Source: Candidatus Kuenenia stuttgartensis
GTDB taxonomy: Bacteria > Planctomycetota > Brocadiia > Brocadiales > Brocadiaceae
Assembly (NCBI RefSeq): GCF_900232105.1
Contig: NZ_LT934425.1
Location: forward strand, 420,001-452,000
DNA: 32,000 nt
Reading direction: 5' to 3'
Below, piece by piece: positions 6,826-32,000 of the stretch; the first letter of the stretch is position 1, and each line of letters begins with the position of its first letter. The translations under genes were made by a program, and so were the position numbers. The notes beneath the pieces were generated by a model. It ran no database searches, was not told where the DNA came from, and saw nothing but the letters and a program-made list of their open reading frames with translations.

Positions 6826-8478
6826 ATGGATATAATATCAATTTTAACCGGCCTAATAGCAGGGCTTTCAGTTTCCTACATCATTTTCTATTTGCTAAAC
6901 AAGGCAAAAAGTGTTTCTAAAACAGCCTATGAAACATTAAATGCGAAATTCCATGAAACAAATACACAATGGAAGGTTTCAGAGGACAGGCTTTTAGTGC
7001 AACAACTGGAATATTCAAAATTGAATACAAAGTATGAATCAGCAGCAATAGAGCTTACAGGACTTCAATCCAAATCCTCTTCATTGGAAACAACAGTTAA
7101 AAACAATGAATTGAGAATTGCTGAACTTTCAAAGGTGATGGCAGAGCAAACGACCTTAAACACATCTCTGCAAAATGAAATCAATTCATTAAAGCAGAAA
7201 ATCGCCGAAGGAAATGCAACTAATAATTCGTTGAAAGAAAATTTGAAATCTCAGAAAGAACTCAATCAAAAACAAGCAGACGCATTAGTCCAACTATCAG
7301 ACAAAATAACGAAAATAACCGCCGAGAACAGCACACTGACTGCCAAAAATTCTGCACTAACGGAAAAACTATCGACTCAAAAAGAAGAGATCACTAAAAT
7401 GCAGGAAACCTCTCATTTGCAATTTGAAAAGATGGCAAATCAAATTCTGGAAGAAAAATCCGGTAAATTTACCGAAACAAATAAAACAAACATTGAAGCT
7501 CTTTTAAAGCCGCTTGGTGAAAATATCGACAACTTCAAAAAGAAAGTTGAAGAAACGTATGACAAGGAGTCTAAGCAACGATTTTCACTTGAAGAGAAAG
7601 TCAAGGAATTAGTGGAACAAACAAATAAAGTAAGCAGTGAGGCTAATAATCTTGCGACGGCACTTAAAGGTCAGGCGAAAAAGCAGGGTAACTGGGGTGA
7701 AATGATTCTTGAAAGTATCTTGCAAAAATCAGGATTGGTAAAAGACAGAGAATACTTTTTACAACAGACAATAAAAGACGAAGGGGGAAACAGTTTAAGA
7801 CCCGATGTCATGGTGAAACTTCCCGACAACAGAGTAATAATTATCGATTCAAAAGTATCATTAGTCTCTTACGACAGGTTTTCATCAGCAGAGACAACCG
7901 ACGAACAAACAATTCATTTGGCTGAGCATTTGAAATCAATCTATGGGCACATAGACGATCTGCACGGAAAAAAATATGATGCCCTTGAGGGTTCATTAGA
8001 CTTTACAATGATGTTTGTTCCTATTGAGCCTGCATATTTAATATCCATTCAAAAGGATCAAGACCTTTGGACATACGCTTATGAAAAAAGGATACTACTC
8101 ATTAGTCCAACAAATTTAATTGCCTGCTTAAAGTTAATGGCTGATTTATGGAAAAGAGAGATGCAAAGTAAAAACGCAATGGAAATAGTAAGAAGAGGGG
8201 ATTTACTCTATGAAAAATTTGTAACATTCGTTTCAACTCTGGAAGATGTTGGAAAACATATTAATAAATCCCAACAATCATACAATGCAGCCATTGGACA
8301 ACTCAATAGTGGAAGCGGCAATTTAATTGGACAAGCATTAAAACTCAAAAATCTGGGATTAAAATCAAATAAAGAAATTCCGGCAGCTATGTTGCCGACA
8401 GACTTTGAACCGGAACAAAACAAGCACGAAATAATAACTGCGAAATCCGAAACAACTTCTAATGACAAAATTATTTGA
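6826..8478 (+). CDS. rmuC: DNA recombination protein RmuC
   Basis: It has an N-terminal TM helix, a long Q/K/E/L-rich coiled coil, and a C-terminal RmuC nuclease-like core (NWGEMILESILQKSGL, RPDVMVKLPDNRVIIIDSKVSL, MMFVPIEPAY). Confidence 0.85.
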   Translation: MDIISILTGLIAGLSVSYIIFYLLNKAKSVSKTAYETLNAKFHETNTQWKVSEDRLLVQQLEYSKLNTKYESAAIELTGLQSKSSSLETTVKNNELRIAELSKVMAEQTTLNTSLQNEINSLKQKIAEGNATNNSLKENLKSQKELNQKQADALVQLSDKITKITAENSTLTAKNSALTEKLSTQKEEITKMQETSHLQFEKMANQILEEKSGKFTETNKTNIEALLKPLGENIDNFKKKVEETYDKESKQRFSLEEKVKELVEQTNKVSSEANNLATALKGQAKKQGNWGEMILESILQKSGLVKDREYFLQQTIKDEGGNSLRPDVMVKLPDNRVIIIDSKVSLVSYDRFSSAETTDEQTIHLAEHLKSIYGHIDDLHGKKYDALEGSLDFTMMFVPIEPAYLISIQKDQDLWTYAYEKRILLISPTNLIACLKLMADLWKREMQSKNAMEIVRRGDLLYEKFVTFVSTLEDVGKHINKSQQSYNAAIGQLNSGSGNLIGQALKLKNLGLKSNKEIPAAMLPTDFEPEQNKHEIITAKSETTSNDKII

Positions 8479-8681: not shown

Positions 8682-11258
8682 TTACCGCGGCCCTCTATCA
8701 TTAAACAGCTTCAATTGATGGTAGTCTTCTTTTGCGTCATGGTCCGGTTCTGGTTTTCCGTTCTCAACCATCTTAACGTCGATTACCTCATAACTGCTCA
8801 ACCGATTGCCTCTTGCCTTCCATCCTTTGACATCCACAAGGTTATTCAAAGACGCAACTTCACTTCGTTTTTCTTTTTTACGTCCGAAAACGCTGTGTAT
8901 CTCTGCTTTAGGGTCTGCATCCGTTGTGACAACTGCCGGAAAACTACCTTCACTTTCTCCAATGAATGAGAAGACACGGCCAACAACATCTGATTCTGTT
9001 TTAAAGCGTTTTATGTAGTAATTTTTTGATTCTCCGTCAAAATACACCGCGGTAATAATGGTTTCAGGGTTATATTTTTCAAGTATGTCAATTTTTTCAT
9101 TATCATAATGATTTGTCAGTTCAAAGGTCGTCAACTCCAATGCGCCATCCTTGTATATCACCAGTATCCTGTCTTCCCCTTCAAATTTGCCCAAATATTT
9201 CCCACGGTTTTCACTATTAAGCCTTCCAACCGTCTCGTCATACCAGATATCAATCCCGCCGAGGGTAGAAGTTCCGGCTTTTTTATGAAGTATCTTGCGA
9301 ACCGGATATTTTGTAAGCCTGTTCCCGATAGAAGCACGTCCCTTCACGGCAAGACCGGCAAAGTCATAGTCAAATGTCAGTTTGCGGGCAGCGCTTTTCG
9401 TGCTGAGTGCCACCGTTACTTCCTCTGATTCGCTGTTTGGGTTTGCGCTGAAATAAAGTACCTTTGAGCCTTTTTTCCCCTGCGACAGGTTGTAGGATTT
9501 ATCGTACGTAATGGAAGTGACTGCAAAACGTTTCACATAAACGGGACCGTCTTTTCCATCCTGATATATCATGTGGTATATCATGCGTGCGTCGTTTTTT
9601 TTCCATACCTGGGCATGTATAATATCTTTTCCGACAAATGCTTTTTCCGATACCCGTGTAACCATAAAGGTACAGTCCGACAGGAAAACAATGATGTCGT
9701 CAATATCAGAACAATCGCCAATGTACTCTTCTTTCCTGAGGCCATAGCCTATAAAACCATCCATCCTGTTAATATACAGTTTTTGATTGGCCTGGGCAAC
9801 CTGTGCAACATGAATAGTTTCAAAGTTGCGGATTTGTGTTTTTCTTTCCCGACCCTTTCCGTATTTTTTAATCAGATTTTCAAACCAGGCAATAGCGTAC
9901 TCGGTAAGATGCTTTAAATCATATTCAACCTGTTTGATTTCGACTTCCAGTGCCTTAATAGCCTCGTTGGCCTTAAAGGAATCGAAGCGGGAAATGCGTT
10001 TAATTTTTATTTCGGTGAGACTGACGATATCTTCCTCATTTATTTCACGTTGAAAATGTTTTTTATAAGGCATCAAACCTTTATCAATGGCGGCAATCAC
10101 CCCTTCCCATGTTTCACATTCTTCGATATCCCTGTAAATGCGCTTCTCAATAAATATTTTCTCCAGTGAAGAAAAATGCCATGCTTCCCGCAGTTCGCCA
10201 AGTTTAATCTCCAGCTCGCGTTTCAAAAGACCTACGGTGTGTTTTGCAGATATTTTCAGGATTTCATTCACACCGAGAAACCTTGGTTTTTCATCTATAA
10301 TGACGCATGCGTTGGGCGATATGGATATTTCACAATCAGTAAAGGCGTACAGTGCGTCAATAGTGACATCGGGAGAGACATTTGGCGGGAGTTCAACAAC
10401 TATCTCCACATCCTTTGCGGTATTGTCCACCACTCTTTTGATTTTTATCTTGCCGTTTTCATTTGCTTTTACGATGGAATCCATAACGTTAGCCGTGGTA
10501 GTCGTGTAAGGAATACTGCGGATAACCAGGGTTTTCTTCTCCAATATCTCTATTTTTGCCCGAACGTTGATTCTGCCGCCGCGCAACCCTTCGTTATAAT
10601 TGCTGAAGTCCGCCATACCTCCCGTGGGAAAGTCCGGCAGGAGATTTACTTCTTTCCCGCGCAGTGTGTCTATTGATGCTTCAAGCAATTCAATAAAATT
10701 GTGGGGCATAATCCTTGTAGCAAGACCTACGGCAATACCTTCAGCGCCTTGTGCCAGCAGCAACGGAAATTTCATGGGCAAAAGCACAGGCTCTTTCTTT
10801 CTGCCATCATATGAAAGCTGCCATTCGGTGGTTTGATTGTTAAAAGCCACTTCAAGGGCGAATTTTGAAAGACGCGCTTCGATATAACGAGGAGCGGCTG
10901 CGGAGTCACCCGTCGAAATATCGCCCCAGTTCCCCTGCGTCTCAATCAGAAGGTCTTTTTGTCCCAAATTAACCAGCGCTTCACCAATAGCGGCGTCTCC
11001 ATGTGGATGGTACTGCATGGTATGGCCAATAATATTGGCTGCTTTATTAAAGCGTCCGTCGTCCATCTGTTTCATCGAATGTAAAATACGGCGCTGAACG
11101 GGCTTTAATCCGTCAAGCAACGCAGGAACTGCCCTTTCCAGGATTACATACGATGCGTATTCAAGAAACCAGTTGCTGTACATTTCCGAAACATGAAGCG
11201 CCTCATGGATGACGCCATTTGCTTCAGAAGAACTTTTAAACATTTTATTATTAACCAT
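8682..11258 (-). CDS. parC: Type IIA topoisomerase subunit A (topoisomerase IV ParC-like)
   Basis: Motifs present are LKPVQRRILHSM, HPHGDAAI, and the active-site AAPRYIEARL tyrosine. I recognised no GyrA box. It starts 4 nt after the parE-like stop. Confidence 0.8.
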   Translation of the reverse strand: MVNNKMFKSSSEANGVIHEALHVSEMYSNWFLEYASYVILERAVPALLDGLKPVQRRILHSMKQMDDGRFNKAANIIGHTMQYHPHGDAAIGEALVNLGQKDLLIETQGNWGDISTGDSAAAPRYIEARLSKFALEVAFNNQTTEWQLSYDGRKKEPVLLPMKFPLLLAQGAEGIAVGLATRIMPHNFIELLEASIDTLRGKEVNLLPDFPTGGMADFSNYNEGLRGGRINVRAKIEILEKKTLVIRSIPYTTTTANVMDSIVKANENGKIKIKRVVDNTAKDVEIVVELPPNVSPDVTIDALYAFTDCEISISPNACVIIDEKPRFLGVNEILKISAKHTVGLLKRELEIKLGELREAWHFSSLEKIFIEKRIYRDIEECETWEGVIAAIDKGLMPYKKHFQREINEEDIVSLTEIKIKRISRFDSFKANEAIKALEVEIKQVEYDLKHLTEYAIAWFENLIKKYGKGRERKTQIRNFETIHVAQVAQANQKLYINRMDGFIGYGLRKEEYIGDCSDIDDIIVFLSDCTFMVTRVSEKAFVGKDIIHAQVWKKNDARMIYHMIYQDGKDGPVYVKRFAVTSITYDKSYNLSQGKKGSKVLYFSANPNSESEEVTVALSTKSAARKLTFDYDFAGLAVKGRASIGNRLTKYPVRKILHKKAGTSTLGGIDIWYDETVGRLNSENRGKYLGKFEGEDRILVIYKDGALELTTFELTNHYDNEKIDILEKYNPETIITAVYFDGESKNYYIKRFKTESDVVGRVFSFIGESEGSFPAVVTTDADPKAEIHSVFGRKKEKRSEVASLNNLVDVKGWKARGNRLSSYEVIDVKMVENGKPEPDHDAKEDYHQLKLFNDRGPR

Positions 11259-16660: not shown

Positions 16661-16716
16661 CAACAATCGTATTATCTTAAATGCGTTCACACCCAAATGG
16701 GCAAATGCTTCGCCTC

Positions 16717-16744
16717 TACTTTTTCAAAAAAACTAAAGTGTTAC
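16717..16744. repeat. AT-rich palindromic motif, copy C
   Basis: The sequence is tactttttcaaaaaaactaaagtgttac. It forms an inverted pair with copy B around a 56-bp spacer that contains GGGCAAATGCTTCGCC. Confidence 0.7.
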
Positions 16745-17752: not shown

Positions 17753-17900
17753 GGGACTTGGAATTTTCTATTCTATAGTAGCAGTCGGCAGATTTAGGAC
17801 TGTGGACTAGGGTGGCAAGGACAAACCCTGTTTTTCAGTGTTGAACTCTCACTCCGTTGTCTATGAAGCATCCATTTTGAAATGTGGATATGCAACGACG

Positions 17901-17973
17901 GCAGGGGCGAAGCATTTGCCAGTTTGGCTATGAACGCATCTATGACAATTTGTAGCAAATGCTTCGCCCCTGC
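17901..17973. repeat. Perfect 19-bp inverted repeat GCAGGGGCGAAGCATTTGC / GCAAATGCTTCGCCCCTGC with a 35-nt loop
   Basis: Arms are 17901-17919 and 17955-17973, exact reverse complements. A related half-site GGGCAAATGCTTCGCCTCT lies at 16699-16717. Confidence 0.8.
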
Positions 17974-18109
17974 TTTTGCAATTACAAAGCATTGAGCAAA
18001 TATTACGAAACCACAGACAAGCAAGGCTTTTCTGTGCCACCCATTACGGAATAATTGCTTTGTATCAATTTGACAAATCACAAACTGTAAACCTTTTGAG
18101 TATAACTTC

Positions 18110-20721: not shown

Positions 20722-20746
20722 ACAAATTCGTATATAAGAAGCGTAG

Positions 20747-20774: not shown

Positions 20775-20969
20775 AAAATAACGGCAGCGAAAACGAACAA
20801 ATACCAAAGACTTTACCAGCAACACGGTTGGTATTCCATTACGAAGGGGTGCATTCCTGATTTTTTATAACTTCCGCCATATTTTAATGATACGTTACAA
20901 TAGTGTTAACCCTGACAGGGTTGTTTCGTCCTGAACCCATTAACGGTTACAAAAAATCAGGGAAATATA

Positions 20970-21025
20970 GGGACACTTCCCTTATTTTTCCAACAAGATC
21001 AAGCAAGTAATATGGGAAGTGTCCC
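20970..21025. repeat. Inverted pair of the 12-mer GGGACACTTCCC (32-nt spacer)
   Basis: Arms are 20970-20981 and 21014-25 (GGGAAGTGTCCC). A third copy lies at 28459-28470. Confidence 0.7.
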
Positions 21026-21084
21026 CTAATTATCCCTTTAACTCCGCCATTTATGGCGGAGATTCGCATGGTTAAACATTGGCT

Positions 21085-21827: not shown

Positions 21828-23028
21828 ATGAGAGATAAAAACAAAAGCTATTTAAGAGAGGGCATTATTACAGTAATTTTGCTTTCATTTATGTTTTTAG
21901 TAAACATTTTGCAGGTAAGAATAGCGTTGGGGATAGAAATAATAAGCGGAGGAACTGGTGCTCTAAGCCTTAGCAAGAGCGAAGCCTTTCTTAATGGTGA
22001 TACTATAATAATAACCTTAATTGATAGCGATCTAAATGTATCAAGCTCCGCAGATACTGGTACTGTGAAATTAATATCATCAGATACAGGGAGTAGTGGC
22101 ATAAATCTTACAATGACAGAGAACAACTCCAATTCAAGTACGTTCTTAGGAACATTTATTACAGCTTCCTCCACAAATCAGAACATTTCTCCTGTTCAAG
22201 TAAAAGCTATTGCCAACGGGACTATTGCGGTAGTGTATCAGGATGCAAGTCCTGCGGCTGACGTTACGGCAAATGTAAGCACCAAAAATTTTGGTGCTGT
22301 ACTTGATATTACGGCAGATCATGTAGCGATTGGCGGAAATGCCGTTGTATCCTTGTATGACCCGGAAACAAATGCCTCGATATCTTATGCAAATGTTGCC
22401 AATGTAAACGTTAAATCCACTACGGATTCAACGGGCACTACATTGAGGTTGACTGAAACGGGTAACGATACGGGGTCATTCCTTGGAACGATTGCCGTAA
22501 GTGCCAGCGATACATTGGTAAATACCCGTATTAAATCAGCGGTTGGCGATACTATAACGGTTTCATTTACCGACAATCCTGATGCGGATGGTGCTATTAG
22601 CATAGTTTCCGATACCGCAGAGGTTGTTGAGGCGGGAACGATTGATTCTAGCGCACCCTCTGGTTCGATAGCTATAAACGATGGCGATATATATACAAAA
22701 ACCACTTCTGTAACCCTGAATCTTTCTGCAACAGACAACACGGGAGTTACTGGCTATTATTTGTCAGCAAGCTCAACGACTCCGTCATCTTCTGATTCAA
22801 GTTGGATATCAGTATCATCGACCACCAGCTACAGCGCAAACGTCTCGTACACATTAAGCAACGGAGATGGTTCAAAGACGTTGTATGTGTGGTACAAAGA
22901 CGCCGCAGGGAATGTTTCAAGTACTGCCAGTGATTCCATCACTTTAGATACCACTGCCCCAACGGTATCAATAACCAGCCCAACACCCGATGCTACCTAT
23001 TCAACCACAAGCAGTACCATAAGCCTAG
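21828..23028 (+). pseudogene. 5-prime part of an IS-disrupted large secreted/cell-surface protein
   Basis: AGGAG lies 8 nt upstream. An N-terminal signal-anchor helix is followed by two tandem modules of about 100 aa ending in (T/S)ETGN(D/N)(T/S)(G/S)(S/T)FLGT, then Ig-like repeats. The frame is broken by the IS at 23029, and the IS end supplies the TGA. Confidence 0.8.
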
Positions 23029-23070
23029 CGTGAGTTTATCACGAAATAAGGTGTAAGACAAAGACATCAA

Positions 23071-23110
23071 GTTGCAATCCAATGATTTGTATCGGGTTGC
23101 GACTTTTTTT
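23071..23110 (+). terminator. Intrinsic terminator inside the IS left end
   Basis: GTTGCAATCC-N13-GGGTTGCGAC forms a 10-bp stem with two G.U pairs, followed by T7 at 23104-23110. Its position would block read-through into the transposase gene. Confidence 0.55.
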
Positions 23111-23226
23111 GTCTAAAAAATTATGTATACACTGAATAATACTATATTTATATTGCATTATATGCCTGTATATACTATTATACACGGAGTATTAATCTAT
23201 TACGTATACACTAACAACTAATAGCC

Positions 23227-24963
23227 ATGGCTACCATTCAATCTAAAAACTCCAGAGGTTATAAATATTGGTATATTGTCGAATCGCGGCGCGTTAACGG
23301 CAAGCCCAGGCCCATCGTCCTGGCCTATCTTGGCAAGGCAGACGATTTATTAAAACAACTGCAAGGTCTTACCGAAAAATTACGGCTCAAATCTTATTCA
23401 CATGGCGCGGTAGCCGCATTGCTAAGTGTGGCCAATGCCCTGGACGTCCCTTCCGTGATTAATAAATATATAAAGTCGCCACGGCAGTATTGTGCTAAAA
23501 AACCTGTTCGAAATAATCTGACCGCCGGAAGTACCCTCTTGTTGGGTGCCGTGGGGAGAGTGTGTGTGCCTACCAGCAAAAGAGGATGGTGGGATTGGGC
23601 AAAGACGACTACTGCCGAATACTTACTCAGACACAGCTTGAGTAAAATAGACAGTCAGCATTTCTGGGATTTGATGGATGCACTTCCTGAAGAATCCATT
23701 GCAGAAATCGAGCGCGAATTAATTGAAAAGACATTTAAAACATACAACCTTCAAAGCGACACACTGTTTTTTGATACAACCAATTTTTTCACGTATATCG
23801 ACACAACTAATCTGCGATGCACTATTGCCCGGCGGGGGAAAAACAAACAAAAGCGATACGATCTCAGGCAGGTCGGGTTGGCGATGGTCGTTACACGTAA
23901 CGACATGATACCGTTGTTTCACCATACCTATCAGGGGAACATGGCGGATGCAAAGGTGTTCAGCGCGGTTCTTGAGACGATAAAAGACAGGATGACCGGA
24001 TTAGGTTTCGACAGCAAAAAGCACACTATTGTTTTTGATCGTGGAAACAATTCCATGGACAATATGGCTATTGTAGAGAGATTGGCATTGCATTACGTTG
24101 GAGCGCTTACACCGTATCATCACAAGCAGTTGGTAGGGGATGCCATGTGTAATTTCAGGGAATATGACGTTGACGGCAGTAAGATACAGGTGTACCATGA
24201 CAAACGGGTTATTTGGGGGCAGGAAAGAACCGTTGTCGTATTTATTTCCGAGAAATTAAAGGTTGGGCAATTAAGGGGAATGTCTCAGTCTCTGGAAAAG
24301 GCAGAACATCAGTTAAAGCTCTTACAGCAGCATCTGTGTAATCCAAAGGGAAAGATGCGGGACAAAGAGGGTCTGGAGGATACGATAAGAAGTGTAGTGA
24401 AATGTCAATTTGCGAAGGATGTTATCGATTGGTCGTTAAAAGAGGTATCTGAAGGCAAGTTTCAATTGAATTTTTCAATCGACCAGAAAAAGCTCGAAGA
24501 AATAGAAGGGGAACTGGGGTTCAGGATTCTTATGACAGACCATCACGATTGGGATACCGCGGACATTATAAAAGCCTACTATGGGCAATCAAAAATTGAA
24601 CATGCCTTTAGAAATCTCAAGAACCCCTATCACCTTGCTTTAAAACCGCAATTTCACTGGACGGATCAGAAAATCAGGGTGCATTTTTTTATTTGCGTCC
24701 TCGGATACCTAATGGCGGCGATTGTGTGGTATCAGGCAAAAGCGCACGCACAATTTAGTGGAACGTTAGATACCCTGTTAGACACCCTTAATAATATAAG
24801 GCTTTCTGCTATGCTTGAAGAAACAAAGGCCAGAGGGAGAGTTAAGGCTACCTACAAATTGGAAGAAATGTCCGACAAGGAATCTCTGTTGATGAATGCG
24901 TTAGGCATTATGGATTTCCACAAACATCGGCTGAAACTTCAAGGACTCAGTGTATACAATTGA
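23227..24963 (+). CDS. DDE transposase, IS1634/IS4-family
   Basis: It is 578 aa. The N-terminus YKYWYIVESRRVNGKPRPIVLAYLG is typical of IS1634-group transposases. Candidate DDE residues lie in FFDTTNF, VFDRGNNS and YYGQSKIEHAFRNLK. The last reads Y-(2)-Q-(3)-E-(6)-K, the IS4 signature with R replaced by Q. Confidence 0.8.
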   Translation: MATIQSKNSRGYKYWYIVESRRVNGKPRPIVLAYLGKADDLLKQLQGLTEKLRLKSYSHGAVAALLSVANALDVPSVINKYIKSPRQYCAKKPVRNNLTAGSTLLLGAVGRVCVPTSKRGWWDWAKTTTAEYLLRHSLSKIDSQHFWDLMDALPEESIAEIERELIEKTFKTYNLQSDTLFFDTTNFFTYIDTTNLRCTIARRGKNKQKRYDLRQVGLAMVVTRNDMIPLFHHTYQGNMADAKVFSAVLETIKDRMTGLGFDSKKHTIVFDRGNNSMDNMAIVERLALHYVGALTPYHHKQLVGDAMCNFREYDVDGSKIQVYHDKRVIWGQERTVVVFISEKLKVGQLRGMSQSLEKAEHQLKLLQQHLCNPKGKMRDKEGLEDTIRSVVKCQFAKDVIDWSLKEVSEGKFQLNFSIDQKKLEEIEGELGFRILMTDHHDWDTADIIKAYYGQSKIEHAFRNLKNPYHLALKPQFHWTDQKIRVHFFICVLGYLMAAIVWYQAKAHAQFSGTLDTLLDTLNNIRLSAMLEETKARGRVKATYKLEEMSDKESLLMNALGIMDFHKHRLKLQGLSVYN

Positions 24964-25032
24964 TGTTGTGCTTAACGCATTGACTGTATTTATGTTACGT
25001 TGCTTCATGCCTTATTTTGTGATAAACTCACG

Positions 25033-26541
25033 CTAGGCGGAAGCGCATCTGACAGCACCAGCGGGGTAAGCAGCGTTGTATGGTCAAATAGCTCTACAGG
25101 CAGCAGCGGAACTGCAAGCGGCACAACAAGCTGGTCTGTTTCAAATATAAATCTTTCTGAAGGGAGCAACTCCATAATGGTAACGGCAACTGATAATGCG
25201 GGAAATACGGCAACGGATTCAATTACTGTTACCTATTCCGAACCGCAACCCACTCCTTCGCCAATACCTATAATAAATCCTCCAACAGTGGAAACTGATT
25301 CGGCAACAAATGTTTCAACCGGCTCTGCCACATTAAACGGTACGGTAAACGCCAATAACTCATCTACTATCGTATGGTTTGAATACGGAACAACAAATGG
25401 TGTTTATTCCTTTTTGTCATCAACACAATCCGTTAACGGTACGGCTGATACGTCAATAAGCATTAGCATCAGCGGCCTGTCAGAAGGCACAATGTATTAT
25501 TATCGTATTGCAGGACAAAACAGCGCAGGTACCAGCTATGGAGATGAAAAGAATTTTACGACTGAATCGTCCTGCATTGATGATTTCGAACCTAATGATG
25601 ACTTCGACGTGGCATACGGACCCTTGGAGTCGGGGAAAAGTTATGAGGGGAAATTGTGCAGTTCTTCAGACAGGGATTATTTTAAGTTTGAGTTGAAAAA
25701 TCCAGATGTACAGTTGATGCTTACTGTGCCAACTGATAATGATTATGACCTTTACCTGTATGATTCCTCGAAAAGTGAAATAAGCAACTCCGCAAATCCT
25801 AAAGGCACGGAAACGATTTCACACAACGACCTCGAAGCCGGTATGTATTATATACAGGTATCAGGTTACAGTGGATCATATAATACGGAAGATGTATATG
25901 TCCTTGTTGGTACATGGACGGCTGCAACAAGCACGACACCTGTACCAACCCCCGCCGAATTAGGCACTATATTTGGAAGTGTGGTTGATACGGATGGAAA
26001 GCCTGTTGCAAATGCAACTGTATTTACTGATAAAGGTGGATATTCGGCAAAAAACGGTTCTAATGGCATCTATCAATTGAACGATGTTGCGGAAGGGAGC
26101 TATTTACTGACCGCACTGGCGGAAGGCTACGGGTCAGTATCGCAGACAGTAACAGTTAAGGCAGGAGAAACAACGCAAGCTGATTTTACACTATTACGTG
26201 CGATAACACCTCCAACGCCTGTTCCTTCGCTTTCACCTTCATTTAGCCCGGTACCATCAACAACACCCACGCCGAGTACCTTAACAGGCAAAATATTCGG
26301 GTATGTTATGGATGAAATAGATAACCCTGTCAAAAAAGCAAAAGTAAGATGTAAGGGGAAAAACACAAAAGTAAAAGCAAATGCGACTACAACCAAGCAG
26401 GGCTATTTTGAATTTAACAATCTTAGCGCAGATTCTTACAAAATTACCGCTAAGAAAAAGGGTTTTAATAAATCAAAATATAACGTGAATCTTGAAGAAG
26501 GAGAGGAAAAGGAAATTGAGATTGTGCTGGAAGAAAAGTGA
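25033..26541 (+). pseudogene. 3-prime part of the IS-disrupted surface protein
   Basis: It is in frame with part 1 once the IS and one CTAG are removed. Domains in order: an Ig-like repeat (GSASDSTSGVSSVVWSN...ATDNAGN), an FN3-like domain (ATLNGTVNANNSSTIVWFEYGTT...YYYRIAGQNSAG), a pre-peptidase C-terminal-like domain (FEPNDDFDVAYG...DRDYFKF...YDLYLYD), and two CarboxypepD_reg-like domains. The track's TTG at 25000 is IS-derived. Confidence 0.8.
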
Positions 26542-26981: not shown

Positions 26982-27353
26982 AAAAGATTTGATATGGAAA
27001 AACGTGGTGGGTGACTATTACCCTTAAAACCAGCGGATAACAGTGAAAAATATTCCTATCTTTTAACGTTTTCGCGTTATAGCCTCTTAAACCCTGTCAA
27101 GATTACTATGAAAAAGTGTTAAAGAATGCCAAGCCAGACAGAACAGAGCAGCCAAAATAGAGAGGACTTGTTAAGGAGATTAAACAGAAATTCATAATAG
27201 AGGTAAATGGATTTACCTGAATATAATCAATTCCAACATATCCTTGTGATCAAAACTGTTAAACGTATAATCGTTTTAGGAAGAAACACATAAAATTGTC
27301 AATAGATTAGGTTTGACCCCATGACCTCCCTTAAATAAATATCCTTGAATAAA

Positions 27354-28358
27354 ATGAGCCAAAATAAAATGGTAGAATTTTTAGTAGAACACAAAACTTG
27401 GTTACTGATAGGTTCTTTTATCATAGCCTTGCTTCTCCCTGCATTACAACATTTATCAAATATTGTTTCAGAGCATAAAGCTCAAAAAGATCAAGAAAAA
27501 TTGATGCAAGAAAATAAGGCTCTTCAAAAACAAGTAGAGGTCTTATCTACACAAAATGTTGAGTTGTCAAAACAAGTGTCAATTTTAGACAGCAAAGCAG
27601 AAATAATAAAAGGAATAGGCCAGAACCAATTGTTTGCTACATTTTACACAGAGGAATTAAGTCAGAACATAAGTAGCATGTGGCTCAAGATTATGCTTAA
27701 AGAAGAAATGGAATATGCCAAGCTGTTACCTCTTGCTTTTGCCATTGAAATTTCATTTGACAAATATAATTCAAATACAACTCGGTTTTATATAACTGAC
27801 GCAGGTACGATGGCTAATTCAAAGGGTAAAAGCACTCCTGTTTCAAGCTATCGAGTCGTAAGTGGCGCATTAAAAAGAAAGGAAGACAAAATATACTCTG
27901 AAATGTTTGCCCCTTCACAGAAAAGCTTAAATGAAATTGTAGTGCCTATAACAATATTTGAACAGGACAAAATGACAATAAAACAATTTCAAGACTATTC
28001 AATCATTTTTTTTCTTCCTGATGCAATCATAGATATCGCTACTAACCTGGAGTTTATTATCAACGGTTGGGCAATATTAGATCAATCAATAAACAGTGCT
28101 GTTTGGGTCCGGAATCCTGCAAAGTATTCTTGGTATCATGTTGGCAATATTGAAAATTTAAAAAGATCTGCAACAAACGACCCTTCTGTTGCCCCCGCAT
28201 TCTCATTATGGCCATTAAATCTTTTCCAAGGTATTCCAAAAAAATATTCTGGCTTCCCTGGTAGTGTACGACCAATTTTTCATGTAACACATGCCGAAAT
28301 AAAAAGTGAACAAGACATTCAACCTGACCGCGTGGAATCCGGACATGTTGAAAAGTAA
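27354..28358 (+). CDS. Hypothetical membrane-anchored coiled-coil protein (about 334 aa)
   Basis: It has one TM helix (WLLIGSFIIALLLPAL) and a heptad-like stretch (KAQKDQEKLMQENKALQKQVEVLSTQNVELSKQV). The C-terminal domain of about 230 aa is unrecognised. The start is uncertain (TTG 27345, ATG 27354 or ATG 27369) and there is no clear SD. The region is AT-rich. Confidence 0.55.
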   Translation: MSQNKMVEFLVEHKTWLLIGSFIIALLLPALQHLSNIVSEHKAQKDQEKLMQENKALQKQVEVLSTQNVELSKQVSILDSKAEIIKGIGQNQLFATFYTEELSQNISSMWLKIMLKEEMEYAKLLPLAFAIEISFDKYNSNTTRFYITDAGTMANSKGKSTPVSSYRVVSGALKRKEDKIYSEMFAPSQKSLNEIVVPITIFEQDKMTIKQFQDYSIIFFLPDAIIDIATNLEFIINGWAILDQSINSAVWVRNPAKYSWYHVGNIENLKRSATNDPSVAPAFSLWPLNLFQGIPKKYSGFPGSVRPIFHVTHAEIKSEQDIQPDRVESGHVEK

Positions 28359-28458
28359 CTTGACAGCTAGAATTTTCCTTATCAGATGCACCGATCTCAC
28401 GGCAGCAGCTTATCTCGCACATTGTTCGAAGGAAAAGAAATAACCCTAGGGGAATAGA

Positions 28459-28470
28459 GGGACACTTCCC
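28459..28470. repeat. Third copy of GGGACACTTCCC
   Basis: Its context aatagaGGGACACTTCCCaca resembles atatagGGGACACTTCCCtta at 20970. Confidence 0.5.
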
Positions 28471-28512
28471 ACATTTCATTCTTTTCTAAGGGGGGACTTT
28501 TGGGTCAAGAAT

Positions 28513-28611
28513 GGGGTCACATCTTGATTAGTGATTATATTGTTGATAATCGGTTGATTCAGAGGACGCCATACTTAATTTGGCAGATTTTCATTCTTAT
28601 TTTGTGACCCC
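28513..28611. repeat. 9-bp inverted repeat GGGGTCACA / TGTGACCCC with an 81-nt spacer
   Basis: Arms are 28513-21 and 28603-11. A related TGACCCC lies at 27314-20 upstream of the 337-aa gene. Confidence 0.4.
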
Positions 28612-28748
28612 TTCAGACACCTGAACCCATGAGTTTATTCGGAGAATAACGCTGTGTGCAGTCGATGGCAGAATCGATAATATAGAATGCTAGATTAAAG
28701 TTACAAACTTGATACCCACAAGCAAACCCGCAGAGGAGATAAAAAACC

Positions 28749-31700
28749 ATGACAAAAGAAGTATCTCAACGATTAGAATCCGGCAGAAAAGAGTTGCTGG
28801 ACCTTAGTATGCGCAATCCATTGCTAAATCAACGTAAACGTGCCAAGCAAGTGGAGGTTTCGGATGAACTTTCCAATGAGATATACCGTATATTGGTAAC
28901 GCAAGGTAAGGAAATGAGCTTTGAAGCATTGCCAGAATCAAAACTTGCACAAATAGTGGAGACAAATGAAAACGAAGAAAACCAAAAAAACCATGACGAG
29001 GATATCAATTCGACAGATTTACTTGCACAACCTGAAGAGTCTCTTGCAGAAGGAATGCTGGCGTCTCGCCATACAGATAGAAAGCTACAAACTATTCTTT
29101 CATCGGAGAAGTTGCAAACAAGAGTACTATCTATTCATAACGATGCCAAAACATACATAGAGGAACAGGGTGTAAATATACTTTATTTGGCATTAGGTTT
29201 CCTCTATTGGTATGAATCAGATAGCGTCAAAGAACCCAGGCGTGCTCCATTAATTCTTGTACCTGTTGAATTGAAACGTATAAGCGCACAGGATCGTTTT
29301 TTTCTTCTTTATACAGGAGAAGAAATAGGAGATAACCTTTCACTCATAGAAAAACTCAAAACAGAATTCAGTGTTAACTTGCCAGAAATCGGAGATACGG
29401 ATGATTTGAACCCGAACTCCTATTTTTCCGAAGTTTGCAAGGTAATTAATGCAAATTCTCGCTGGAAGGTGGAAGCTAATGAGATTACATTGGGATTTTT
29501 CTCTTTTGGAAAATTTCTAATGTATAAAGATTTGGATGCTAACGCCTGGAGCAAAGAAACAGCCCCTTGTGACCATAAAATACTTTCTACATTATTAGAT
29601 GATGGTTTTAGGGAAGCAGACAGTTCATATGACGAAGGAACACATATTGATGAAATTGTTTCACCCTCTGAAGTACACCTGATTAAGGATGCTGATAGTA
29701 CTCAGATGCTGGCTATCTTGGACGTAAATGCCGGTCGCAATATGGTAATTCAGGGTCCACCTGGCACTGGTAAATCTCAAACCATTACTAATATAATTGC
29801 AGAATGCATTGGAAACGGAAAGAAAGTTTTATTTGTATCAGAAAAGATGGCTGCGCTGGAGGTTGTTAAACGTAGGTTAGACGATGTTGGATTGGGAGAC
29901 GCTGTATTAGAGCTGCACAGTCACAAGACCAACAAAAAGAAGGTGTTGGAAGAATTAAACCGCACCTTGCATCAGAAACAACCACTTGTAAAAAATACAA
30001 AAGATGACATTGAGGCTTTAACACAACTGCGTGACAAATTAAACACATATTGCAATGCTGTAAACAAGCCCATAGGAAATACAAAAATAAGTTTTGTAAA
30101 GGCGCTTGGCGGTGCTTTACAAATTACTGAAGGTATGCAAACAACTTCACTATTTAATTTTGCACCAATGGTTGAGTGGCCGGAATCCAACTATAAAAAT
30201 GCGCGGATGCTCGTTGAAGAACTGGACCGATATTTAGAGGAAGCTGGTCCACCGGCACGAAATTGTTTCAAAGATAGTCGGTTGGATGAATCCCTACCTT
30301 CTCAACGCCAATACATAGAAAATATTTTGAAAGAAGCTTATACACTAACAAAAGAGTTAATAGGTAAAACTACTGTACTTGCAGAATCTGTGAAATTAAA
30401 AATTCCGGAAAATATTCAGGAATTGGATATGCTTATCCGTACCTCTAAACGAATTATTGAATCACCGTTTCTTGATGGTATTAAAATAGATTCCGGAAAA
30501 TGGAAGGAACACAAAGACGAAATTGTTCAACTGATTGATGCCGGGTGCCGCCTCAAAGAATTGCATAAATTGTATGATGAATATCTGATCGATGACGCAT
30601 GGGAACAAGACCTCTCTGAAGTCCTTCAAAATTATATTAAAAGAGGTAAAAAATGGTGGAGTTTTCTTTCTGGCAATTTTAGGCGATCTAAAGCTCGTTT
30701 ACAGAGATTAAGTCGTAAGCAATTGCCTAAAAATTCAACCAAAATTATCGAAATAATAGAAGCCGTGCTGGAGAGTCAGAAGTTCTGTAAAATCTACAGC
30801 AACTATGAATCATTAGGCAAAACATTATTTGGAATTCAATGGAAAGGCAAGGAATCCGATTGGGATACGTTAGAAAAACTCTTCAAATGGATCGTGGCTC
30901 TTTATCAAGACATCGACAATAATGTTATACCGACAATAATTATTAACGTTATTTACGAACCAAATCTTGCTATTAGACTTAAGGAACAATTAAGTAATGT
31001 AGAGCCGTTGATACAAAAACATAATGAAGCCTTGTTTGCTGTTTCTGTTAACTTGAAATTGCAAAATGAAGATACCGATAAGAGTTATTGGGATATTTCG
31101 ATGAATTCCATGAAATGCTTTTTTGAAGAATGGCAGAGTCGTTTTGATGATTTATATAATATTGTTCGCTACAATCAGATTTCTAATAATATGAAAGACC
31201 ATGGTTTGTCTTTTATCATTGAGGTTACAAAAGAGTGGGATAAGGGCAGAGGATCGCTCGTCAGGGCATTTGATTACTGTTGGTATAATGGGCTTGTAGA
31301 AAAGGCTTATTCGGAAAATCCTTCGATAAAGTTGTTTGATAGAGTTCAGCATGAACACATCCTCAATAATTTTTCACGTCTTGATCATTTACTTTTTGAA
31401 TACAATAAAGCCAGATTAATGTTGTCTCATTGGGAGACACTGCCAAGTTTGAGTGGAGGCGGGCAACTGCAAATTATTAGCAGAGAGATTCATAAAAAGA
31501 GACGCCATATGCCAATTCGCGAATTGGTTAATCAAGCAGGGCAAGCCATACAGGCAATTAAACCAGTATTTATGATGAGTCCAATGTCTATCGCTATGTA
31601 TATTCCTCCTTCAGTATTGGAGTTTGATCTTGTAATATTTGACGAAGCCAGCCAAGTTAAACCTGTGGATGCTTTTGGCGCAATATTACGGAGTAAGCAG

Positions 31701-32000
31701 GCAGTTATTGTTGGGGATGACAAACAACTTCCTCCTACAAGTTTTTTTAATAGCTTGCAAAACTCTGATGATGAAGAAGACTTTGACAATCTTGGGGATA
31801 TGGAAAGTATTCTAAGTCTATTTTTGGCAAAAGGTGCGCCGGAACGTATGCTAAGGTGGCATTATCGCAGCCGTCATGAGTCACTAATTGCAGTGTCTAA
31901 TAACGAGTTTTACGACAATCGTTTGGTTGTATTTCCCAGTCCAGGCATTAATTCTAATGCAAGAGGACTCAGATTAAGACATTTTCCAAAGACTGCTTAT
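28749..32000 (+). CDS. DUF4011-type SF1 helicase (Upf1/DNA2-like AAA_11/AAA_12 core), 3-prime end beyond window; at least 1,083 aa visible
   Basis: It is not in the supplied ORF track. GAGGAG lies 10 nt upstream of the ATG. I translated the frame through to 32000 without meeting a stop. Motifs seen: LLDLSMRNPLLN, GVNILYLALGFLYWYES, Walker A QGPPGTGKSQTITN, motif II FDLVIFDEASQV, GDDKQLPPT and LRWHYRSRHESLIAVSNNEFY. Confidence 0.85.
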   Translation, partial: MTKEVSQRLESGRKELLDLSMRNPLLNQRKRAKQVEVSDELSNEIYRILVTQGKEMSFEALPESKLAQIVETNENEENQKNHDEDINSTDLLAQPEESLAEGMLASRHTDRKLQTILSSEKLQTRVLSIHNDAKTYIEEQGVNILYLALGFLYWYESDSVKEPRRAPLILVPVELKRISAQDRFFLLYTGEEIGDNLSLIEKLKTEFSVNLPEIGDTDDLNPNSYFSEVCKVINANSRWKVEANEITLGFFSFGKFLMYKDLDANAWSKETAPCDHKILSTLLDDGFREADSSYDEGTHIDEIVSPSEVHLIKDADSTQMLAILDVNAGRNMVIQGPPGTGKSQTITNIIAECIGNGKKVLFVSEKMAALEVVKRRLDDVGLGDAVLELHSHKTNKKKVLEELNRTLHQKQPLVKNTKDDIEALTQLRDKLNTYCNAVNKPIGNTKISFVKALGGALQITEGMQTTSLFNFAPMVEWPESNYKNARMLVEELDRYLEEAGPPARNCFKDSRLDESLPSQRQYIENILKEAYTLTKELIGKTTVLAESVKLKIPENIQELDMLIRTSKRIIESPFLDGIKIDSGKWKEHKDEIVQLIDAGCRLKELHKLYDEYLIDDAWEQDLSEVLQNYIKRGKKWWSFLSGNFRRSKARLQRLSRKQLPKNSTKIIEIIEAVLESQKFCKIYSNYESLGKTLFGIQWKGKESDWDTLEKLFKWIVALYQDIDNNVIPTIIINVIYEPNLAIRLKEQLSNVEPLIQKHNEALFAVSVNLKLQNEDTDKSYWDISMNSMKCFFEEWQSRFDDLYNIVRYNQISNNMKDHGLSFIIEVTKEWDKGRGSLVRAFDYCWYNGLVEKAYSENPSIKLFDRVQHEHILNNFSRLDHLLFEYNKARLMLSHWETLPSLSGGGQLQIISREIHKKRRHMPIRELVNQAGQAIQAIKPVFMMSPMSIAMYIPPSVLEFDLVIFDEASQVKPVDAFGAILRSKQAVIVGDDKQLPPTSFFNSLQNSDDEEDFDNLGDMESILSLFLAKGAPERMLRWHYRSRHESLIAVSNNEFYDNRLVVFPSPGINSNARGLRLRHFPKTAY

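Follow-up and report, generated by a model that had tools for sequence, protein, structure and literature searches.

A DUF4011 helicase-nuclease gene, a single-gene defence candidate, in a variable region next to xerD of Candidatus Kuenenia stuttgartensis

The helicase-nuclease gene and its protein

Anammox bacteria are slow-growing, uncultured in isolation and the workhorses of nitrogen removal, and, to our knowledge, how they defend themselves against phages is poorly understood. The stretch analysed here, a 32,000-nt window of Candidatus Kuenenia stuttgartensis (contig NZ_LT934425.1, positions 420,001 to 452,000), ends inside a giant gene of the forward strand that encodes a predicted helicase-nuclease with a DUF4011 module at the N-terminus. 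Translation from the ATG at 28749-28751 yields 1,084 codons (28749-32000, 3,252 nt) free of stops up to the last nucleotide of the window. The translation start region (28733-28751, plus strand) holds a GAGGAG at 28733-28738, 10 nt 5' of the ATG, and an in-frame TAA at 28740-28742, three codons 5' of the ATG, so that the start is fixed and no 5' extension is possible. A preliminary description of this DNA, made from the letters of the window and a list of its open reading frames (ORFs), had claimed both the open frame and the GAGGAG as a Shine-Dalgarno sequence, and both are borne out, with no in-frame stop missed. It had also stated that only a 64-amino acid out-of-frame plus-strand ORF is listed in this part of the window, which is the case (28966-29160, with four short minus-strand ORFs besides), and that ORFs without a stop in the window are omitted from the list, as the list's own description says.

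The part of the gene that the preliminary description could not see was recovered from near-identical contigs. A protein search with the window translation retrieved a protein of 1,580 amino acids (P0001) that is 100% identical across all 1,084 residues and is encoded on three Logan contigs (L001-L003), which differ from the window at one position in 4,710 bp (window 27291-32000, 99.98% DNA identity). According to these contigs, the whole gene consists of 4,743 nt, the final 496 codons lying past the window end. The exact protein cluster includes WP_099323856.1, a protein with the RefSeq name "DUF3320 domain-containing protein" that is encoded on a 4.4-Mb K. stuttgartiensis contig.

The domain order of the protein was read from Pfam matches to the full translation. 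The conserved N-terminal module, DUF4011 (PF13195, residues 15-203, 28791-29357 on the plus strand, E 8.6e-44 to 1e-43), contains the motifs LLDLSMRNPLLN (residues 16-27) and GVNILYLALGFLYW (residues 141-154). The match to AAA_11 (E 7.9e-13 as a whole) is split into two pieces, the first at residues ~323-377, where it is best traced by AAA_19, and the second at residues 958-998, and is followed by AAA_12 (residues 1020-1214, E 8.9e-13), MTES_1575 (PF18741, residues 1261-1357, E 2e-38, 130.7 bits against a cutoff of 38.2) and DUF3320 (residues 1414-1461, E 2e-12). Between the two AAA_11 pieces lies an insertion of ~580 residues (~378-957, 29880-31619, plus strand), Trp-rich and conserved, with invariant Trp and Gly columns, which interrupts the first RecA-like domain and so separates Walker A from Walker B.

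When 56 homologues (45-64% identity) are aligned, the residues expected of an active motor and an active nuclease are invariant and kept in this protein. These include helicase motif I or Walker A, GPPGTGKSQT (residues 336-345, 29754-29783, plus strand); motifs II, DEASQ (965-969), and III, GDDKQLPP (989-996), which together span 31641-31736 on the plus strand, with invariant D965, E966, G989, D990, Q993, P995 and P996 (the GDxxQLPP pattern); WHYRS (1037-1041); QGDERD; and RRLNV..R. The nuclease residues D1288, E1305-C-D1307-G and H1312 are likewise invariant. With motifs I, II, III, V and VI all intact and both AAA_11 and AAA_12 matched, the motor fits an Upf1-like superfamily 1B (SF1B) helicase, and a sequence search of solved structures returned only Upf1-like helicase cores, those of IGHMBP2 and Sen1 (4b3g, E 7e-8; 5mzn, E 1e-5). 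Every motif quoted in the preliminary description is present, its reading as DUF4011 plus an SF1B helicase agrees with the Pfam matches, and the nuclease and DUF3320 that it had predicted for the unseen C-terminus are real on the full gene.

Structure prediction is consistent with these assignments. The AlphaFold model of DUF4011 has a pLDDT of 79.6 and that of the C-terminal 356 residues a pLDDT of 87.4. The modelled C-terminus consists of an alpha-beta-beta-beta-alpha-beta core followed by two helix-helix-helix-hairpin modules. In Foldseek searches, the core fits the catalytic domain of I-Bth0305I (3r3p, probability 1.00, TM 0.73, rmsd 2.9 Å), and the tail fits tandem winged-helix binders of nucleic acids such as SelB WH2-4 and AlkX/YcaQ. 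The model of a Vsr-like core with a winged-helix tail agrees with the original definition of MTES_1575 as a Vsr-fold REase and with the overlap of DUF3320 with winged helix-turn-helix (wHTH) domains (Anantharaman et al. 2013, PMC3710099). As judged from sequence and models, the protein is a fusion of DUF4011, an SF1B helicase, a Vsr-fold nuclease and two winged helices.

Accessory status and genomic surroundings

Comparison with other Kuenenia genomes places the gene in a variable region that starts immediately 3' of xerD. Three sister lineages were compared at this position, L093 (which stands for 17 contigs), L097 and L098, in which XerD is 98%, 88% and 86% identical, respectively. The L093 DNA is 92-97% identical to the window up to position 20732, 11 bp beyond the stop codon of xerD, where the blastn homology ends; the synteny breakpoint with all three lineages, seen by blastn and in the gene tables, is thus at 20733, and the window sequence 3' of 20732, helicase included, is specific to this lineage with respect to the three. 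In L093, xerD is followed by HigB/BrnA, DUF2283, a CI-like repressor and cytochrome genes, without the helicase, and in the 88% and 86% lineages by TPR and housekeeping genes, so that none of the three has the helicase at the syntenic position 3' of xerD. The 10 kb 3' of the gene show no homology to the sister loci by blastn or tblastx. The variable region may reflect either an insertion or a rearrangement breakpoint, both of which fit.

A search of 5.8 billion proteins found helicase homologues at 100% identity and at 64% or less, and none in between. The topo IV/gyrase A-like protein of the same window (8682-11258) is 99% identical to a protein from a Ca. Kuenenia stuttgartiensis metagenome-assembled genome, with further relatives at 87, 84 and 79%. 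From this gap in the identity ladder, we infer that the helicase is missing from the whole genomes of the sister lineages, not only from the xerD locus. Six exact 8-residue peptides of the protein had no copy in the species-representative genomes, which suggests that the representative of K. stuttgartiensis, probably a different strain, lacks the gene as well. The closest named relatives belong to Chlorobi, Deltaproteobacteria and Nitrospirales, other Planctomycetota homologues being only 30-38% identical, and the GC content at third codon positions (GC3) is 0.31 compared with 0.41-0.52 in the flanking core genes. Relatives occur on 567 plasmid records, 221 of them conjugative. A phage origin was considered as well and rejected, given that a full-length relative was found in only 1 of 50,697 phage records.

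Taken together, the absence from the sister loci, the identity gap, the low GC3, the relatives outside Planctomycetota and the occurrence on plasmids indicate, at the level of sequence comparison, that the gene is accessory and horizontally acquired. The preliminary description had suggested comparing presence and absence among close relatives, and the outcome is that the gene is not part of the syntenic core. Within the MBR1-like lineage, the gene is fixed at the locus: at least eight independent assemblies carry it at the same place, with the 1,580-aa frame intact and at most two amino-acid differences, which implies that it is under selection.

The chromosome 5' of the breakpoint carries a radical-SAM gene, MatE, an epimerase, MgtE, RmuC, two topoisomerase subunits, YjeF_N, pyruvate kinase, RadC, DUF2284, a phasin, UbiB and XerD. 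Between xerD and the helicase lie a gene for a 901-aa surface protein and two genes, of 134 and 334 aa, without an assigned family. The second of these, the immediate upstream neighbour (27345-28358, plus strand, 334-337 aa), encodes an N-terminal transmembrane helix and a coiled coil without a Pfam or PADLOC match and probably is not part of the helicase system. In sister assemblies, the helicase is followed by a 241-aa gene, a 90-aa gene (zinc ribbon, membrane), RelB/ParE, Fic and then metabolic genes. The gaps on the two sides of the helicase are 390 bp to the 334-aa gene and 176 bp on the 3' side. The Fic gene is intact (381 aa) in two metagenome assemblies (L007 19090-20337) and split into Fic_N (178 aa) and Fic (205 aa) in GCA_022180985.1 (L008 16986-18131).

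A PADLOC scan of the window, which the preliminary description had proposed, matches the helicase to PDC-S37 and, among the 10 neighbours in the window, matched only the stand-alone RmuC. The latter (6826-8478) scores 364 bits with the PADLOC model 'RTasRmuC', a DRT accessory, with no reverse transcriptase nearby, and is most likely an ordinary recombination protein. The preliminary description had portrayed the surroundings as an AT-richer segment laden with insertion sequences (IS) and repetitive extragenic palindromic (REP) elements that resembles a defence island. This stands in part: there is one IS, one 82-nt hairpin with a half copy and a modest drop in GC (0.388 compared with 0.410). 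The 28 kb upstream, though, consist of housekeeping genes and a surface-protein gene, and no other recognized defence system is present in the window, so that 'defence island' overstates the context.

The IS (2,004 bp, 23029-25032, plus strand) encodes a DDE_Tnp_1 transposase (23227-24963), has 29-nt terminal inverted repeats and is flanked by a 4-bp target duplication. It splits the gene of the 901-aa CarboxypepD_reg/Big-domain surface protein into 21828-23033 and 25000-26541 and no other assembly of the lineage carries it; hence, its insertion is recent and strain-specific. The REP-like hairpin (20953-21034, 82 nt, no strand assigned, DNA fold -13.7 kcal/mol, z -3.95) has GGGACACTTCCC arms, and the half copy (GGGACACTTCCC, 28448-28483, plus strand) lies in the 390-bp leader 5' of the helicase; six copies of the element are spread across the variable region of L093 (11069-18537).

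The helicase forms a block with the 334-aa gene 5' of it and the 241-aa and 90-aa genes 3' of it, and this block is flanked by two copies of a direct repeat of ~170 bp, the first at 27167-27335 (plus strand) and the second, at 87-89% identity, after the 90-aa gene (L007 18290-18463). Short-read contigs break inside this repeat. Each copy holds the best sigma-70-like match of the region. The repeat may have arisen by duplication of a promoter segment or may mark the edge of a cassette. The promoter reading is a suggestion, promoter-like sites not being enriched overall (25 found compared with 26.2 expected from shuffled sequences). Neither a tRNA gene nor an Rfam family was found at the locus. 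Elsewhere in the window, a 350-bp insertion between the phasin gene and ubiB (17754-18103), which is present only in the MBR1-like lineage, contains an imperfect palindrome related to 16671-16717 and to L093 sequence, without an Rfam match.

None of the four neighbours of the helicase (134, 334, 241 and 90 aa) has a homologue beside 81 relatives searched by tblastn, and from this gene order the helicase would be expected to act as a single gene without a conserved partner. Four of the five close homologues on long contigs adjoin restriction-modification (R-M) or nuclease genes, and toxin-antitoxin pairs also occur in the surroundings of close homologues. In two of these contigs, L103 and L105, the helicase homologue is directly 3' of a truncated type I hsdR; in L104, it is next to a type III R-M pair and a DUF1016 nuclease; and in L004, it is next to a second PDDEXK-helicase. 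The 5' fragments of hsdR encode 255 and 398 aa (L103 7085-7852, Prosthecochloris; L105 6832-8028, an ENA contig), and the helicase gene abuts or overlaps them, so that in both cases it looks embedded in a decayed R-M locus. The L105 contig also carries a Rep_trans and Zot block that resembles an integrated filamentous phage (14631-19797, 2-7 kb 3' of the helicase homologue).

Interpretation and alternatives

The explanation that best accounts for these observations, to which a probability of about 0.65 is assigned, is that the ORF at the window end covers the 5' two-thirds of a gene, functional and acquired horizontally, for a single-gene helicase-nuclease of the DUF4011/PDC-S37 family, which is ProA-like and related to Hhe, in a variable region next to xerD. 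By analogy with Hhe, action against invading DNA is the most likely role. The protein would act alone, with the two C-terminal winged helices of DUF3320 and the N-terminal DUF4011 holding the nucleic acid. The Upf1-like SF1B motor would translocate along the strand using ATP, presumably 5' to 3' as in the rest of the superfamily, and the Vsr-fold MTES_1575 domain (D1288, E1305, D1307 and H1312) would cut DNA. The likely targets would be intermediates that arise when the DNA of invading phages or plasmids is replicated or processed, and the spread of these invaders would thereby be limited, and self DNA would presumably be spared.

Several observations weigh against this interpretation. There is no recognized defence system in the 28 kb upstream, and on the 3' side there are only RelB/ParE and Fic. 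One close homologue (P0019) lies among metabolic genes with a RelE/MqsA pair, and PADLOC, run blind and without a control set on 147 immediate neighbours from 37 genomes, produced few matches, a result that is given no weight here. The model of DUF4011 has no significant Foldseek match in the PDB, and the ~580-residue insertion matches no family. The literature search found no paper on PDC-S37 and no primary description of ProA. Furthermore, DUF4011 proteins are not always accessory because, in Pseudomonas aeruginosa, a large DUF4011 gene is core and present in every isolate (PMC10250203).

The latter finding also speaks for the alternative that the protein is a housekeeping helicase-nuclease that repairs or recombines the host chromosome, for example, at stalled forks or, via the Vsr-like domain, at mismatches. 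Such a role would be in keeping with the presence of a genuine repair enzyme among the Vsr-fold nucleases, with the RmuC, RadC, topoisomerase subunits and XerD encoded in the same window, and with the fixation and near-invariance of the gene in the MBR1-like lineage. A housekeeping gene would not be expected to be missing from the locus in three sister lineages, to lack any orthologue at 64-99% identity among 5.8 billion proteins, to follow a phylogeny that departs from taxonomy, and to combine a low GC3 with relatives on plasmids and beside R-M genes; this alternative is, accordingly, quite unlikely. The gene could also be cargo of a mobile element, carried as a cassette between the 170-bp repeats and serving the element for exclusion, for addiction or as a weapon against plasmids. 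The repeats indeed flank the four-gene block, which adjoins a tyrosine recombinase gene, REP-like elements and the RelB/ParE and Fic modules, and relatives are found on 221 conjugative plasmids and, in L105, 5' of the inovirus-like Rep_trans/Zot block. XerD, however, is a core gene conserved across Brocadiales rather than the integrase of an element, and the block has no tRNA gene, att-like site, transfer genes or element replication genes. Moreover, given the promoter-like site in each copy, the repeats may be duplicated intergenic promoters, and the other three genes of the block never accompany the helicase elsewhere (81 relatives). This possibility, which overlaps with defence rather than excluding it, is considered unlikely.

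Those three genes are central to the remaining alternative, a Kuenenia-specific multi-gene system in which the helicase would be the core and the 334-aa membrane/coiled-coil, 241-aa and 90-aa zinc-ribbon membrane proteins its partners. All four genes are co-oriented between the repeat copies and the block is always kept together on Logan contigs, but the putative partners have neither a homologue beside the 81 relatives nor a family in Pfam or PADLOC, the helicase is set apart from them by gaps of 390 and 176 bp, and PADLOC models the family as a single-gene candidate; such a system seems very improbable. All three alternatives appear less likely than a defence helicase-nuclease.

The locus is a clear example of a large helicase-nuclease gained beside xerD at the level of strains, and the gene is a concrete candidate for an antiviral function in anammox bacteria. 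Since RefSeq already lists the gene, and PADLOC and NCBIfam its family, the present finding refines an annotation and reveals no new system. The wider DUF4011 family is very large and unstudied: the domain is carried by 6,507 representative clusters (at 50% identity), and relatives of the protein are present in at least 592 species-representative genomes of Bacteria and Archaea.

Comparison with known systems

The preliminary description had called the gene an Hhe-like single-gene defence candidate. The architecture of Hhe, the end-to-end match to a PADLOC candidate family and the lack of a conserved neighbour uphold this, but the protein is not Hhe proper, which it matches with 1,117 bits against a required 2,000 in NCBIfam and with 817 bits, compared with 1,983 for PDC-S37, in PADLOC. 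The PDC-S37 model (PDLC05009, for which no cutoff is given) is matched with 1,982.7 bits, residues 1-1574 of the protein aligning with positions 1-1544 of 1550, and even the fragment in the window scores 1,302 bits over model positions 1-1064. The members have the same length (~1,575 aa), domain order and single-gene organization, with no structural difference from the Kuenenia protein. PDCs are single-gene 'guilt-by-embedding' defence candidates, mostly unvalidated (PMC12988326).

Among the named families, ProA (NCBIfam NF058533.1, an equivalog of 1,903 positions) scores best, with 1,512.9 bits, a mere 13 bits more than the cutoff of 1,500. The Kuenenia protein is collinear with model positions 354-1903, which comprise the DUF4011, helicase, nuclease and wHTH part. 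The first ~353 positions have no counterpart in it, the in-frame TAA excluding an extension of the gene. Six relatives resemble it in this, with scores of 1,472-1,636 bits and a match that always begins near position 354, and even in relatives with N-terminal extensions of their own the ProA N-terminus is unmatched. The ~1,575-aa clade as a whole sits at the ProA cutoff (1,472-1,522 bits). From these comparisons, the protein belongs to PDC-S37, which is the short-form sister family of ProA and is related more distantly to Hhe. It is conceivable, if rather doubtful, that this short-form clade, which lacks the ProA N-terminal domain, is a mechanistically distinct sensor-effector rather than a trimmed ProA or Hhe, in which DUF4011 and the ~580-residue Trp-rich insertion would form a new sensor of nucleic-acid structure that gates the Vsr nuclease and that, in Kuenenia, was mobilized as a promoter-repeat-bounded cassette next to xerD.

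Hhe is the relative for which experimental data are available. It protects Escherichia coli, being active against lambda, T3, T7 and PhiV-1, and the nuclease mutation E1731A abolishes defence (10.1101/2022.06.16.496414); DNA-metabolism genes of T7 act as its triggers (10.1101/2024.10.10.617714). The Kuenenia protein shares with Hhe the order of DUF4011, SF1 helicase, Vsr-type nuclease and DUF3320 in one polypeptide encoded by a single gene, and the counterpart of E1731 is probably an invariant acidic residue such as E1305. The matches to the Hhe models (NCBIfam NF042953.1, 1,117.4 bits against a cutoff of 2,000; PADLOC PDLC02194, 817 bits, no cutoff given) are each broken into two stretches, and the models are ~200-330 residues longer than the Kuenenia protein. 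By these scores, it falls in a sister clade of Hhe rather than being an Hhe ortholog.

The individual domains have wider affinities. The motor has the same helicase motifs as the Upf1-like SF1B helicases (IGHMBP2/SMUBP-2, Sen1 and the DNA2/NAM7 group; 74 bits with the IGHMBP2 model TIGR00376), but in this protein, unlike in those helicases, the first RecA-like domain is split by ~580 residues and the motor shares its polypeptide with DUF4011, a Vsr-fold nuclease and two wHTH domains. Likewise, the nuclease has the same core as Vsr and I-Bth0305I (3r3p, TM 0.73), with the residues D1288, E1305, D1307 and H1312, but whereas the Vsr repair enzymes and the I-Bth0305I homing enzymes are free-standing proteins, here the nuclease is a domain inside a giant helicase.

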